DNA of 64,000 nt from Eledone cirrhosa (taxonomy: Eukaryota). Location: the NCBI GenBank assembly GCA_964016885.1, contig OZ024763.1:26040001-26104000 (forward strand), given 5' to 3'. Within the stretch, counting starts at the first letter, position 1, and each line of letters opens with the position of its first letter. Below the pieces are notes generated by a model. That model made no database searches. It had not been told where the DNA came from and saw only the letters and a list, made by a program, of their open reading frames with translations. A program made the position numbers and the translations under genes. Shown here in pieces: positions 2,258 through 35,039 of the stretch.

Positions 2258-2325
2258 CTGTTATTGTTACGGTGGCCTACTGGGGGTTATTAGAGACGGT
2301 GGAGGACCTGGTTTGGTTTTCAATG
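2258..2325 (+). ncRNA. Candidate Pol III small RNA, class I, copy a (degenerate)
   Basis: GTTACGGTGGCCTACTGGGGGTTATTAGAGACGGTGGAGGACCTGGTTTGGTTTTCAAT. Upstream is ATAGAAAGTAGTTTCATATATATTAAATTTCA, like the other copies. The B box is damaged. Confidence 0.4.
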
Positions 2326-2394
2326 AAGACATACGTTAAGGGGTCTTACTTTTCCCTTTTATAAGAGAAAAAAATGTAAGATTTAGTGAGATTA

Positions 2395-2470
2395 TATCCT
2401 GATTCAGATCGAACTCACGACCAGGAACGGATTCACCTCTAATACATACCACTGGGTCACCAAAACGGAT
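2395..2470 (-). ncRNA. Candidate Pol III small RNA, class I, copy b
   Basis: Minus: ATCCGTTTTGGTGACCCAGTGGTATGTATTAGAGGTGAATCCGTTCCTGGTCGTGAGTTCGATCTGAATCAGGATA, with T7 at 2374-2368. Convergent with copy a. Confidence 0.45.
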
Positions 2471-3204
2471 GTATATATATATATACACACACACACACAA
2501 ACATATATATTTATATGTATATATACACACACACATTTATTTATATATCTATACACATATATATAAATAAATTATTTATATATATATATATATATATATA
2601 TAAAACAAAGAAATAAGTCACCAAGTTTAACAGCTTATAAATTATTTATTTGATCAACACTTGTTTCATTGCTATTACATGTTACACATCTTTAGAAAGA
2701 CATCGTCAGGAACAATTCTAAACATAACATTGGAAGTCTGCAATAGAAAATAAATCAATTTTGAGGTTGAATATATATTTCAATGCTATATTGTTGTTTT
2801 ATCAACTGATAGAATTTTCAACACGTAATATATATATATATATATACGTAAGCATGTATGTTTCTATATATATATACATGTATATGGCAATAGGGAGCAA
2901 GAGTAAGACACTATTGAACTCCCGAACTAGAGTGCCACAGTATGGCACTTTAGAGCTTCAGTGCTGCACTATGGTATTTAGTAGATTTAACTAAACTTAG
3001 TACTGACTTAGTACTGAGTTAGTAGAGTTAAAAGCGAATACAAGCAGCCAAAATGGGGTACCTCGAAAGGGTCTTTGGAGTAACGTTACTTGATAAAGTG
3101 TGTAGCTCAGAGATCAGAGAGTCACTCCAGGTAGAGCTGCTACTTCTCCCAACTGAGAGATCACAGCTCTGATACTATGGACATGCGGTTAGAATGTCTC
3201 AGGA

Positions 3205-3397
3205 AAGAATATGTATATATATGTATATATATATATGTATATATATATATATATGTATATATATATATCTATGTATATATGTCTACATATATATGTATAT
3301 ATATCTATGTATATATGTCTACATATGTATATATATCTATATATATCTCTCTATATATATATTTATATGTATGTATGTATATATATATATATATATA
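3205..3397. repeat. Compound (TA)n microsatellite
   Basis: TA/TATG/TATC repeats. Confidence 0.9.
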
Positions 3398-4324
3398 GAC
3401 ATGTGTGAGGTAAAGTAAATCTAGACTTTATTTCTCATTGCTCTAGGCTTGATTTGAACCTACAACAACTCCGTCTGCAATAATGTCATACCTCATTCCA
3501 GCTTAGTCGTACCCGTAAATTGTTAAACGTGGTTCCTATATATATATACATGCAAGTAAGATTTGAACCTACATTGCTGTGCTTAATTTATATTAATAAA
3601 TGTGTTTTATAAAAGAAAGTAAAGAAACAATTTAATGAAAGTAAAATATTTATTTTATTCAGGAATGTTTTTTTTTAATTTTATGTATTCACTTCATTAA
3701 CTGCTGAATAGTTCTCTTGTTTTTGGTTTTGTTTGTTCTTACCATTGTTTACTGTGACTGTGACGAGACTGGATTATTACCAAGTTTTACTGGAAGATGG
3801 CATTTCCTTATTGTATTATTTTGTTGTCAGTGGACATCTCTCTAAATACCTGGAATAAACATATGGTGTGTCTTTTACGTAACATTTCATTTAATATCTG
3901 ATGTTCCAATGGATTACTTTTAAAATAAAACCAATAAACAGGACAGGTAGACTCCATCAAAAGAGACCAGAGATGAGATACGAATAATCTAAAATTAATT
4001 TTAAAAAGAAGACTGTGTTTAAAGAAAGACAAACAATCACATCCATAATTTAATATCTGAAGATCAACATTTTTCACGATATAAATATGTAAAGTTAAGT
4101 GACCTCTCATTTAGTTGCTCCAACTTTATTTTACTAATCTATTCTGTAGACTTATATTTTCGTTGGTGTACATTACGATTTCGTTGATGAAATTTTCTTT
4201 CGTCTTTAGATCTATATTTTACTTCTGGAATACTGTATTAACAATTATATCACTCGTCTTTAGATCTTTATTTCTTATAAAAGTTATAATACTCACCTCT
4301 TCCCATTATATTTTCATATATAAT

Positions 4325-4512
4325 GGCAGGTGGATTGGCAGTATCGGTAGAGGGTCGGACGTCATGCTTTCCAGCATAGTTACGTCCCTTTACGATCTGA
4401 GTTCAAATCCAGCCGAGGTTAACTTTGCCTTTCATCCTTACGGGGGTCGATAAAATAAAGTACCAGTAATGCACTGGGTAATTTCTGGCCTTGTGCTAAT
4501 AGTAGAAACAAT
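4325..4512 (+). mobile_element. tRNA-derived SINE, family 1
   Basis: GGCAGGTGGATTGGCAGTATCGGTAGAG (A box) ... GAGTTCAAATCC (B box) ... GTCGATAAAATAAAGTACCAGT. Absent from the paralogous block near 24250. Confidence 0.9.
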
Positions 4513-32962: not shown

Positions 32963-33089
32963 AAAAATGACACGACCTTCCTTCATCGCTGCAGGAGTCC
33001 AACTGGCAATGAACTGACCATGAGAGGCAAGTACTCGACAACAGTGAACATCACATGTTTGGTGTAAGGAACACACTACCACTTATATA
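32963..33089 (-). ncRNA. Candidate small-RNA gene, class II, copy 5
   Basis: TATATAAG at 33089(-). ACATGTGATGTTCACTGTTGTCGAGTACTTGCC...GCCAGTTGGACTCCTGCAGCGATGAAGGAAGGTCGTGTCA-T5. Confidence 0.35.
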
Positions 33090-33725
33090 CTGTGGTAAAT
33101 GGAAAGCCGAGTCAAACCTTATCAACATTCTCAGAGACCCTTTTCTCCCTTATGAAGCAGTGAAATAAAGAATTGCAGGGGAATTATTTTTTAACAGGAG
33201 ACTGATATGTCGTGGTTGTTGTTATAATATGTAGTTAGGGTTTCAATCTTCAGCTGGGATTGTAAAATTACTTTTATTAACTAAAAACATCAAAAAAGAA
33301 TATAGCGTCCTTGTACGTTCAAACTGAAGAGGCATTATTGCCAACACATCACTGTAAGATCAAATCTAATACACAAACACACACATATATATATATATAG
33401 ATTGAGGGATGACAGAACTGAAGAGGCATTATTGCCAATACATCACTGTAGTATCAAATCTAACACACTCACATGTATATATTTAGTAATCAGGTATGAC
33501 CAATGAAGGTCGTTAGTGGAGATCATCTGGTTGTGGCATCAAATCAACCCTGGCTAAATGAGATATCAAATCAAGATTTATTTTATCAAAGCCTCAGAAG
33601 AATAAAAATCAACGTCAACCCTTTATAGTATTAATTCGACTGAGAAAGGCATGAACACCACCACGTCAATTAAGCTTGGAAATAGAAAGTAGGTTTATAA
33701 ATATTAATTTTCACCCTGTTTTTAT

Positions 33726-33798
33726 ATCCGTCTCGGTGGCCTATTGGTAGGTGTTAGAGATGTCAAAGATCTTGCCCAGGCACTACAAAGTTTTTTTT
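33726..33798 (+). ncRNA. Candidate Pol III small RNA, class I, copy i (B box deleted)
   Basis: TATAAA at 33696. CCGTCTCGGTGGCCTATTGGTAGGTGTTAGAGATG, then T8 at 33791. Confidence 0.45.
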
Positions 33799-33824
33799 CT
33801 TTTTGTTTTTTCATAAGAAAAATG

Positions 33825-33910
33825 AAAAAATAGCGGATTCTGGTCAAGATTGAACACCTGACTAGGATCACCACCGTCTCTAACACTTACCATTAAGCCA
33901 CCGAGACAAC
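33825..33910 (-). ncRNA. Candidate Pol III small RNA, class I, copy j
   Basis: TATAAA starts at 33941 (-31). GTTGTCTCGGTGGCTTAATGGTAAGTGTTAGAGACGGTGGTGATCCTAGTCAGGTGTTCAATCTTGACCAGAATCCGCTA-T6. Confidence 0.6.
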
Positions 33911-35039
33911 TACACAAACAGACTGAAAATTAATATTTATAAACCTACTTTCTATTGCGAAGCTTAATTGATGTAGTGGCGTTCATGGCTTTCTCAATAT
34001 TATTAATACTACAAAAAGGGGTCGACATTAATTTTTATCCGTCTGGGACTTTCACGAAATATATTTTGATTTGGTTTCTCATTTCTCTAGGGTTCATTTG
34101 ATCTTATATCCAGATGATCTGCAGTGTCGTTATTCAATGGTCATACATTTTTCTTCAGCCACTTCTTCCTGTGAGGGTTGTGGAGACAGAGCCCTCAAAC
34201 ACTCCTTCCAGCGGGTCCTGTCAGAAGCAACCGATGTGTGTGTATGTTAGATTTGATCCTAGGTGGCGTTCAAGACTTTCACAGTATTATTGGTACTAGA
34301 AAGGGTCGACCTTGTCTTTCATCCCTCTGGGGCTTCCATAAAGTAAATCTTGCTTTTGTTTATTATCGATCTAGGGTTGATTTGAAATTCTATTGACTCC
34401 ATCTGTAGCATTACTCAATAACTTCAAATCTGTCATACCTCATTTCCATGTGTGTGTGTCTCTGTGTGATGTGTCGGTAAATTGTCAAACCTAATTCCTA
34501 CATAGATAGATATGTGTACATATGTAAGATTTGAAACTACAATGATGTGAGTTAAAGTAATGGCGCTATGTATATGTAGTGTTTCCTCCATTAAAAAATA
34601 ATTAAAAGCAATTCTATATCATCCAAGTGAAAGATTGAACTCCTGACAAAACCTTACGCTACATAACACCAAAACTACATCACATACTTAACTACTAAGC
34701 CACCGACATACATAGATATTCGTATATCAAAATAAAGTATTAAAACGTCAATTTTTAATTTTTAAATAACATTAGACCACCTTTGTGTTTTCAGAGCAGA
34801 TACTATGGACATTAATTTTGAATTATATGTTTTGAGAGCAGATAAAATAAAGTACCAGTTACATACTGGGATCGATTTAATACAGAGTCTTGTCTCCGGA
34901 AATTCTTGGATATGAGCTTATATGTTCGTGAATAAATATAAGTAAAAATTTATAAATACATGCCTGTATGTATTTATAAATACATACATACGTACGTACG
35001 TACGTACGTATGTATGTATGTATGTATGTCAAGTCAGGT

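Follow-up and report, generated by a model that had tools for sequence, protein, structure and literature searches.

Related small RNA families and tRNA-like elements

The snaRs (small NF90-associated RNAs) of African great apes form a Pol III multigene family whose members have a B box and an oligo-U end. They are ~117 nt long and derive from the Alu left monomer (7SL); segmental duplication accounts for most of their spread into tandem arrays, and retroposed relatives exist as well (PMC3045588). The family of short gene units described here, from the octopod Eledone cirrhosa, resembles snaR, since both are lineage-restricted families of Pol III small RNAs with duplication-driven arrays and retroposed relatives. 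It differs in being tRNA-like, in its hundreds to thousands of copies, in its conserved upstream TATA block and in its tail-to-tail pairs, and no sequence relation between the two was found (no Rfam family match). The octopod units are best read as an undescribed snaR-like Pol III multigene family that would evolve by birth-and-death, in which an active promoter, rather than the RNA fold, probably persists. Literature searches, with most subscription papers and Repbase outside their scope, returned no description of this family.

Helenus and TRIMp3 are non-autonomous LTR elements with tRNA-derived Pol III promoters, whose promoter motifs are conserved while the RNA structure is not (PMC10886601). 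The octopod family is similar in having a tRNA-like sequence in a mobile element and in this pattern of conservation. Helenus and TRIMp3 have direct LTRs and 4–5-bp duplications, whereas the octopod carrier has 14-bp inverted ends and 8-bp duplications; moreover, the octopod units are inverted pairs, mostly arrayed outside the carrier, with their own terminators.

The WEIRD RNA of Magnaporthe and the U6/LINE chimeras illustrate how template switching can place a small RNA 5′ of a SINE or LINE (PMC2104539, PMC4476161). The same chimeric form was used for the octopod family to map RNA ends. These accounts concern only the by-product, and WEIRD is shown to be expressed, whereas the octopod RNA is a predicted one.

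Octopuses also possess the tRNA-derived SINEs OK, OR1 and OR2 (as cited in PMC4824008). These share a tRNA-like head with A and B boxes with the present family; they differ from the octopod units, which have no SINE body or tail. Another Pol III-type multicopy ncRNA family is the GC-rich RUF6 of Plasmodium falciparum, which is reportedly Pol III-transcribed and has a chromatin-linked role (PMC9670795). RUF6 is linked to var genes; beside the octopod units, no adjoining gene family was observed.

Gene copies in the window

The window, i.e., the whole stretch of 64,000 nucleotides that was analysed, contains ten copies, all of which are borne out at the positions and strands given in a preliminary description. 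A covariance model trained on 44 members of the family recovers nine of them at E≤2.4e-8 and the truncated copy 26488 only weakly, and its search of positions 1–48500 revealed no additional full copy. Tail-to-tail pairing of these copies inside multi-kb duplications had previously been missed. The features are as follows (labels such as 26488 denote individual copies).

2217–2244, plus strand: degenerate extended TATA block whose 17-mer has 3 mismatches
2260–2353, plus strand: degenerate gene copy (2258), B box broken, T4 at 2350
2371–2472, minus strand: gene copy (2470), promoter replaced by a microsatellite; promoter kept in a paralogue at C24:26.01 Mb
20986–21015, plus strand: orphan TATA block with upstream flank, without gene body
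22684–22711, plus strand: extended TATA block
22722–22818, plus strand: gene copy, span from predicted +1 to first T4
22843–22936, minus strand: gene copy (22933); its subtype has two promoter-less retrocopies on C3
22946–22973, minus strand: extended TATA block
22993–23096, minus strand: gene copy, middle member of a tandem run of three
23107–23134, minus strand: extended TATA block
23167–23268, minus strand: gene copy, first member of the tandem run of three
23278–23305, minus strand: extended TATA block
23406–23423, minus strand: conserved B-box-like element in the upstream flank
26447–26474, plus strand: extended TATA block, degenerate
26485–26514, plus strand: 5′ fragment of a gene copy (26488), cut by a ~190-nt deletion relative to intact paralogues
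26516–26600, minus strand: gene copy (26597), best fold of the window, terminator deleted
26612–26639, minus strand: extended TATA block
33494–34146, unstranded: old inverted duplication (arm identity 74%) with the last tail-to-tail pair and its upstream flanks
33686–33713, plus strand: extended TATA block
33724–33794, plus strand: gene copy, B box deleted
33827–33913, minus strand: gene copy (33910); 11 near-identical genome copies, all within duplicated blocks
33924–33951, minus strand: extended TATA block

The upstream TATAAA block is present as reported, but it is intact in seven copies, not six; it is degenerate in copies 2258 and 26488, and a microsatellite takes its place at 2470. A downstream T tract in most copies was likewise confirmed, with T4 located 67–100 nt from the start in 8/10. 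Copies 26488 and 26597 have no T4 in this range because the ~190-nt deletion joins them head-on. The B-box-like element of the upstream flank also occurs at 3449–3466, 5689–5706, 26779–26796 and 30009–30026, and almost all of its 90 genome matches lie within clusters.

Promoter anatomy and class assignment

Each unit consists of an extended TATA block at a fixed distance, an A box, an imperfect B box and a T run. The spacing of the TATA block is strict (offset −42 in 163 of 201 promoter-bearing copies), and it is maintained in subfamilies with unrelated far-upstream flanks. In addition, some subfamilies have deleted, duplicated or triplicated the B-box hairpin and kept the promoter.

The internal boxes are less regular than originally proposed. 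The A box TRGCNNARYGG, near +8, is full in 3/10 window copies and in 34/64 family representatives, with 15 more representatives near consensus, but it is not full in the rest. The B box GTTCRANNC occurs in full form in none of the ten window copies and in 15/64 representatives; its last position is T in 35, GTTCRA is missing in 12, and the final C is lacking in most copies. The first T4 lies at +71 to +105 in 59/64 representatives, and none of the 64 has a T5 within the body.

Comparison with five U6 and tRNA-Sec upstream regions of the same genome revealed a common TATA at −30 in an AGTA-G-TATA context. The family thus resembles U6, tRNA-Sec and vault RNA genes in its oligo-T terminator and in a TATA that has the same surroundings and lies at about −30. 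However, the element at about −80 shared by the U6 and tRNA-Sec genes is absent from the family units, and the proposed vault/tRNA-Sec-type hybrid promoter is not supported. A different −80 block exists in some subfamilies and is missing from others. Vault RNA has a 5′/3′ panhandle, which the octopod family does not possess.

As previously suggested, the units form no cloverleaf: ARAGORN predicted no gene in the window or in the 57 loci scanned. Rfam searches of the window and loci gave no RF00005 match on any unit and no match to vault, Y, 7SL, 7SK, U6 or any other family. What remained in these searches were sub-cut-off miRNA scores driven by microsatellites and one unrelated weak tRNA match. 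The best global alignments to tRNA reach z of about 3 (tRNA-Ser and one repeat labelled tRNA-Ala) among 29 distinct tRNA-like sequences covering only a few isotypes. A tRNA origin is plausible; a tRNA-Sec origin was rejected (z 1.9). Overall, the view of these copies as lineage-specific, Pol III-type small RNA genes with an upstream TATA, internal A/B boxes and no Rfam family is supported.

Constraint on promoter and RNA fold

Conservation is stronger in the promoter than in the predicted RNA fold. Counted by parsimony over 117 non-redundant units, which were gathered by promoter and body motifs whose conservation is inflated thereby, changes per site amount to 5.0 in the TATA block, 6.7 in the B box, 9.1 in the A box, 9–14 in stem 1, 15–21 in stem 2 and 22.3 in the spacer. 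The order of constraint is therefore TATA, B box, A box and then stems. On internal branches only, the TATA block shows 0.6 changes per site against 7.7 for the spacer, and pairwise values are 0.87 for TATA, 0.75 for the body, 0.63–0.67 for spacers and 0.55–0.64 for shuffled sequences. The part of the block that lies beyond the search motif, positions −25 to −15, equals the remainder in conservation, and the adjoining, equally AT-rich spacer has accumulated about four times as many changes.

A structured functional RNA, protein-bound like snaR or vault RNA and produced from a few master genes, with a pseudogene majority hiding the signal, is a possible but somewhat doubtful explanation. Consensus-like copies do fold strongly into two equal hairpins with D-loop-like and T-loop-like caps (z −4.7 for two representatives), and helix 1 is 88% paired. 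In hairpin 1, pair-keeping changes show a slight excess (85 vs 74.4 ± 5.7), which would fit some selection on the fold. Nevertheless, the proposed two-hairpin fold holds for consensus-like copies such as 26597 (z −3.3) and not for most others, since z≤−2 was obtained in only 3 of 9 folded window copies and in 10/44 family representatives. Its covariation score is equalled or exceeded by 362 of 500 shuffles, RNAalifold yields zero consensus pairs for the family, and compensatory changes on the tree, in a test made on paralogues only, many of them likely pseudogenes, do not exceed the null (11 vs 9.0; 22 vs 22.1). The fold thus shows no covariation and is not supported as the conserved functional feature. 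The loss or multiplication of the B-box hairpin in promoter-keeping subfamilies also argues against this explanation.

Retrocopies and the predicted transcript

Promoter-less dispersed copies offer a view of the transcript. Among 26 such loci, hand-picked and thus non-random from the first 100 of 519 matches, 16 start at −5 to −2 and 10 are 5′-truncated, and in none is anything left of −6 to −40. Downstream, 14/25 carry a SINE- or LINE-like motif in the same orientation and 1 carries one in the opposite orientation. The junction comes after 3–5 T in 12 of these 14, as set by eye, and in 5/14 the T run may be the partner's; a weak control for T runs before SINE heads gave 4/6 vs 10/38. Flanking direct repeats of at least 10 nt accompany 7/25 copies, compared with 22/600 mismatched pairs, two of the seven being TA-rich and two including the SINE tail. 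The 3′ partners vary or are absent, and retrocopies of the genome's U6 and tRNA-Sec genes have the same form.

The retrocopies derive from several subtypes. For instance, one is identical to a C20 cluster gene over 90/90 positions, and the two of the 22933 subtype match from −4 through the T run. Many are nearest to a consensus-like C15 gene, which would suit the few master genes of a structured RNA, though the search motif favours that gene.

The start at the predicted +1, the end at the T run and the frequent SINE/LINE fusion are indirect evidence of germline Pol III transcripts. Family members were thus likely transcribed by Pol III in the germ line, with ends that can be read from the retrocopies, and the transcript would measure about 85–105 nt instead of the 75 nt of the preliminary description. 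These retrocopies probably reflect past transcription, and current activity of the window's own copies is not implied.

Family size, layout and spread

The window is a local sample of a genome-wide family, not the seat of one with about ten copies. The upstream TATA 17-mer has 952 exact genome matches against 4 for a control; when 46 of them were inspected, the family body was found in 36 by a strict pattern and in 45 by eye. This puts the family at about 950 or more short tRNA-like gene units in the octopod genome, with a total of perhaps 2,000–3,000.

The units lie in tail-to-tail pairs and short runs carried in multi-kb duplications, and none of the 11 matches of the 33910 subtype falls outside duplicated blocks. 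The main copies keep promoter and flanks, which agrees with the earlier statement that a SINE body or tail is lacking and suggests spread as DNA. Co-amplification with a nearby TFIIA-like frame was rejected, as this frame has only two intron-less copies on C24.

Pairs are the rule both in clusters and in a dispersed inverted-repeat element. They could be a source of dsRNA, in which opposite transcripts, through read-through or annealing, feed siRNA/piRNA or ADAR pathways and silence the carrier repeats. Read-through of 22740–22918 would form a long hairpin, with miRNA-precursor-type scores far below cut-off, and the 26488/26597 fusion has no terminators. This idea is nonetheless highly improbable: on either strand a T run precedes the partner and the retrocopies stop there, the arms are only about 70–75% identical, and head-to-head placement of units also occurs in subtelomeric arrays.

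The dispersed element carries one gene pair between 14-bp inverted ends with 8-bp target duplications, the latter present with at most one mismatch in 4/5 elements with both ends in range. Target duplications were also seen at loci L098, L100 and L110, the first being one of those five. The inverted ends and 8-bp duplications rule out a Helitron or LTR carrier, and the element is likely a non-autonomous hAT-type transposon. Its right end has 703 genome matches; among 30 sampled ends, 14 have a unit within 1.5 kb and 16 have none. A dispersed repeat with target duplications had been named beforehand as contrary evidence; one pair does lie in such an element, but the window copies lie outside it. 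An origin of the clusters from this element is not favoured, as its likeness to cluster DNA is confined to the gene pair and at most ~450 nt upstream, and it is also opposed by the 16 ends without a unit. The flanks of the clusters do hold a TIR-like 14-mer, but this may be fortuitous.

Residence in this numerous element would also suit a dead SINE-head or tRNA relic that moves passively in duplications and a DNA transposon, its promoter conservation being due to ascertainment and gene conversion and its transcription incidental. Additionally, G>A and C>T dominate the body changes, several window copies are broken, and a SINE head at window position 16914 matches exactly over 14 nt around the A box. 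Such a relic is distinctly unlikely in view of the conservation at −25 to −15 beyond the search motif, the rapid change of the AT-rich spacer and the constant block distance across subfamilies. Retrocopies from several subtypes, one without any difference from its source, also speak against it.

Proposed mechanism and implications

The main reading, to which we assign a probability of about 50%, is that the units are likely Pol III-transcribed (about 85–105 nt), propagated as DNA through duplication and transposon capture, and conserved more in promoter than in fold. TFIIIC would bind the A box and the imperfect B box, and the TATA block, at about −30, would be the seat of TFIIIB. Pol III would then initiate at a purine, 4 nt ahead of the first hairpin base, and terminate at the first U4–5. 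In the germ line, LINE machinery may have turned some of these RNAs into chimeric retrocopies. Through birth-and-death, lineages whose promoter works would keep amplifying, and the RNA sequence of most copies would drift. The unit may therefore behave as a partly selfish, tDNA-like amplicon that acts through transcription or through binding of Pol III factors.

A more far-reaching version, which is unlikely and offered tentatively, is an octopod-specific class of abundant Pol III small RNAs. Its promoter-selected units, numbering thousands, would lie in arrays at chromosome ends and on small chromosomes and be exported across the genome by a DNA transposon, and the class would either titrate dsRNA-binding proteins (e.g., ADAR) or mark chromatin genome-wide via TFIIIB/TFIIIC. 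Coleoids are known for heavy RNA editing, and the RNAs of this family, should they prove abundant in brain or gonad, would be candidates for interplay with it.

Under the main reading, the family offers a way to test whether selection acts on a promoter and not on the RNA made from it, and its units may claim a sizeable share of Pol III output. With no Rfam model for so large a family, cephalopod annotation would have a gap. Furthermore, a DNA transposon is seen to spread intact Pol III units, and retrocopies allow transcript ends to be placed from DNA sequence.

Metagenome and viral contigs, scanned with exact patterns, gave no matches. Contigs of a second organism contain promoter, body and flank pieces at high identity, the body not being singled out, and contigs of sequencing run X5 cover promoter and flanks, as expected of DNA.

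Copies within the window

The preliminary description placed ten copies of the short tRNA-like unit in the window, and all ten were found where it had put them; their signals followed it in part. The upstream TATAAA block, which had been claimed for six copies, is intact in seven of the ten; two have a degenerate version and one has lost it. A T4 tract, expected behind most copies, occurs within 67-100 nt of the start in eight. The A box is complete in three copies, and the claimed B box GTTCRANNC is found in full form in none; across the family its last base is mostly T rather than C.

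The copies, in a window at C24:26,040,001-26,104,000 of a 3.0-Gb genome, are arranged as four tail-to-tail pairs and one tandem run of three, a layout on which the preliminary description is silent. That the units serve as a source of double-stranded RNA is the least probable explanation considered. The surrounding multi-kb blocks are repeated inside the window at 65-88% and recur on C15, C18, C20, C24 and C26 with up to 99% identity, one of these recurrences, at C24:28.47-28.50 Mb, being a 7.7-kb tandem array. All 11 genome matches of the subtype of copy 33910 lie inside duplicated blocks, and the 26488/26597 pair is joined through a ~190-nt deletion absent from intact paralogues.

Family size and copy classes

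Across the genome, the 22-base body motif gave 519 matches when one mismatch was allowed (control, 0), and the exact 17-base TATA motif gave 952 (control, 4). The body stands beside an exact TATA 17-mer in 36 of 46 cases by a strict pattern and in 45 by eye. Because only 62 of the 201 promoter-bearing copies among the loci collected for comparison hold the exact 17-mer, the whole family can be roughly extrapolated, from this non-random sample, to some 2,000-3,000 units.

Three copy classes can be distinguished. Cluster genes, to which the window copies belong, keep the promoter and flanks. In the second class, a single tail-to-tail pair, complete with its two promoters, sits inside a dispersed element. 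Its ends are 14-bp inverted repeats, and 8-bp target duplications with at most one mismatch flank it in four of five cases and were seen at further loci too. The right end has 703 genome matches; among 30 ends sampled, 14 have a unit no more than 1.5 kb away. The element resembles cluster DNA only over the gene pair and up to ~450 nt upstream, which fits the capture of a cluster pair by what is likely a hAT element. The third class consists of single copies without a promoter; one of them (C13:34.452 Mb) has multiplied in tandem to 11 units or more, with a period of 93-95 bp.

Several unit arrays lie near contig ends. A chromosome-end subfamily has a doubled or tripled B-box hairpin, alternating unit direction and no -80 block:
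C1:437.9, C3:5.19, C4:2.0, C5:134.6 and C6:102.3 Mb, chromosome-end subfamily loci (L182-L188, L199)

Promoter and predicted transcript ends

The TATA block is offset at -42 in 163 of the 201 promoter-bearing copies, with the same position and local context as in the U6 and tRNA-Sec genes of this genome. The most fitting reading of the promoter is a strong TATA combined with internal A and B boxes; it would not be of U6 type, since the element at about -80 common to the U6 and tRNA-Sec genes is absent from the family units and a different -80 block is present only in some subfamilies.

Promoter-less copies, read as retrocopies of the RNA, mark the transcript ends. Of 27 examined, L069 was dropped as a cluster gene whose homology continues to +149; L083 was left out of the set as it retains a downstream partner. 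Relative to the first hairpin base, 16 of 26 start at -5 to -2, ten at -1 to +9 and none between -6 and -40, with boundaries accurate to ~2 nt and any start past +14 invisible. Because of the starts at -5 to -2, the predicted +1 is the purine at -4, ~28-30 nt downstream of the TATA. In 59 of 64 family representatives the first T4 is reached at +71 to +105.

Motifs of repeats that we take to be SINEs or LINEs follow the promoter-less copies in the same orientation in 14 of 25 cases and in the opposite one in 1 of 25. Junctions with these partners, placed by eye, are preceded by 3-5 T in 12 of 14, the T possibly being the partner's in five; the control for this feature is weak (4/6 vs 10/38). 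Flanking direct repeats of at least 10 nt occur in 7 of 25 copies, three of them clean, against 22 of 600 mismatched pairs. One retrocopy is identical to a C20 gene over 90 nt. On C3, two retrocopies of the subtype represented in the window by copy 22933 begin at -4 and stop at, or immediately ahead of, that subtype's T run; one of the two is joined to a full SINE. Retrocopies of U6 and tRNA-Sec in the same genome have a like form. Small-RNA chimeric retrocopies are described as template-switching products in PMC2104539 and PMC4476161.

From these starts and ends, and from the same form in U6 and tRNA-Sec retrocopies, we infer germline Pol III transcripts of ~85-105 nt. The indirect evidence for transcription is good, and Pol III has very probably made germline RNA from members of the family, among which the window's own copies are candidates for activity.

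Conservation and RNA fold

Flanks could be aligned in 274 of 351 cluster-gene pairs. In these pairs the identity of the TATA block is 0.87, that of positions -80 to -61 is 0.79, that of the body 0.75 and that of the spacers 0.63-0.67 (shuffled, 0.55-0.64). Of 172 units, 117 that were gap-free and non-redundant went into a tree, on which changes per site amount to 5.0 in the TATA block, 6.7 in the B box, 9.1 in the A box, 9-14 in stem 1, 15-21 in stem 2 and 22.3 in the spacer; on internal branches they are 0.6 for TATA vs 7.7 for the spacer. Collecting units by motif inflates motif conservation, but block positions outside the motif are equally constrained. That the units are a passive relic is improbable.

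A functional structured RNA made from a few master genes is a possible, rather doubtful, alternative. Across 44 sequences the two proposed hairpins are 76% paired, fold z lies below -2 in 10 of 44 representatives, and pair-keeping changes are in slight excess in hairpin 1 only. As a conserved feature the fold was not supported: its covariation score in the 44 sequences was equalled by 362 of 500 shuffles, RNAalifold returned zero pairs for the family, and compensatory changes on the tree were at null level in both hairpins. Covariation, RNAalifold and tree tests thus gave no evidence of selected RNA structure.

The most likely reading, at about even odds (roughly 0.5), is that of Pol III units persisting through a working promoter in birth-and-death amplification, partly selfish. 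Under such amplification, the working promoter would be what persists in the units, which may act through transcription or factor binding, in part selfishly.

Relation to known families

The family is not of tRNA identity: as the preliminary description held, no cloverleaf is present, and ARAGORN gave zero tRNAs in the window and family loci. Its failure to match a known RNA was borne out by an Rfam search without any match on a unit; membership in any Rfam family and SINE identity were both rejected. A tRNA ancestry is plausible from alignment (z ~3, partial tRNA set). In PMC3045588, snaR is a Pol III family spread through segmental duplication; the octopod family shares this working mode and is not a snaR member. 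It likewise shares promoter-only conservation with Helenus, as given in PMC10886601, without being Helenus. No earlier description was found in the literature covered, mostly open-access main texts, with Repbase outside. This is a real, very large and undescribed-looking Pol III gene family, any function of which would be putative.

Neighbouring and other sequences

One open frame stands near the cluster:
43958-45397, + strand, intron-less 479-aa frame, Pfam TFIIA alpha/beta (E 2e-29)

Its only matches are Octopus proteins (47-49% identity), which places the source organism among the octopods; the best are TFIIA-like proteins of O. vulgaris and Octopus bimaculoides. At C24:26.327 Mb there is a second copy that contains a stop, and C2 carries a relative with introns. 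The frame, whose start is either broken or close to an assembly gap, is probably a TFIIA retrogene of octopods.

Tandem arrays adjoin the cluster at 6872-10868, 11693-13795 and 35539-43368 (long GA-rich 31-bp, 24-31-bp and TA-type). A 45-bp satellite (347 copies, 96%) fills 48475-64000, and its unit matches a presumed SINE body at 16905-17100. The 158-bp near-perfect palindrome at 17488-17645, with a TA repeat at its centre, yields spurious miRNA-family scores.

Elsewhere, a dispersed repeat with identical flanks (L162, L164-L172) holds a tRNA-like gene whose anticodons vary (Ala, Val, Thr, Asp by ARAGORN), and ~35 U6 variants stand in tandem with a 1.8-kb period at C19:31.78-31.84 Mb (L137-L147).
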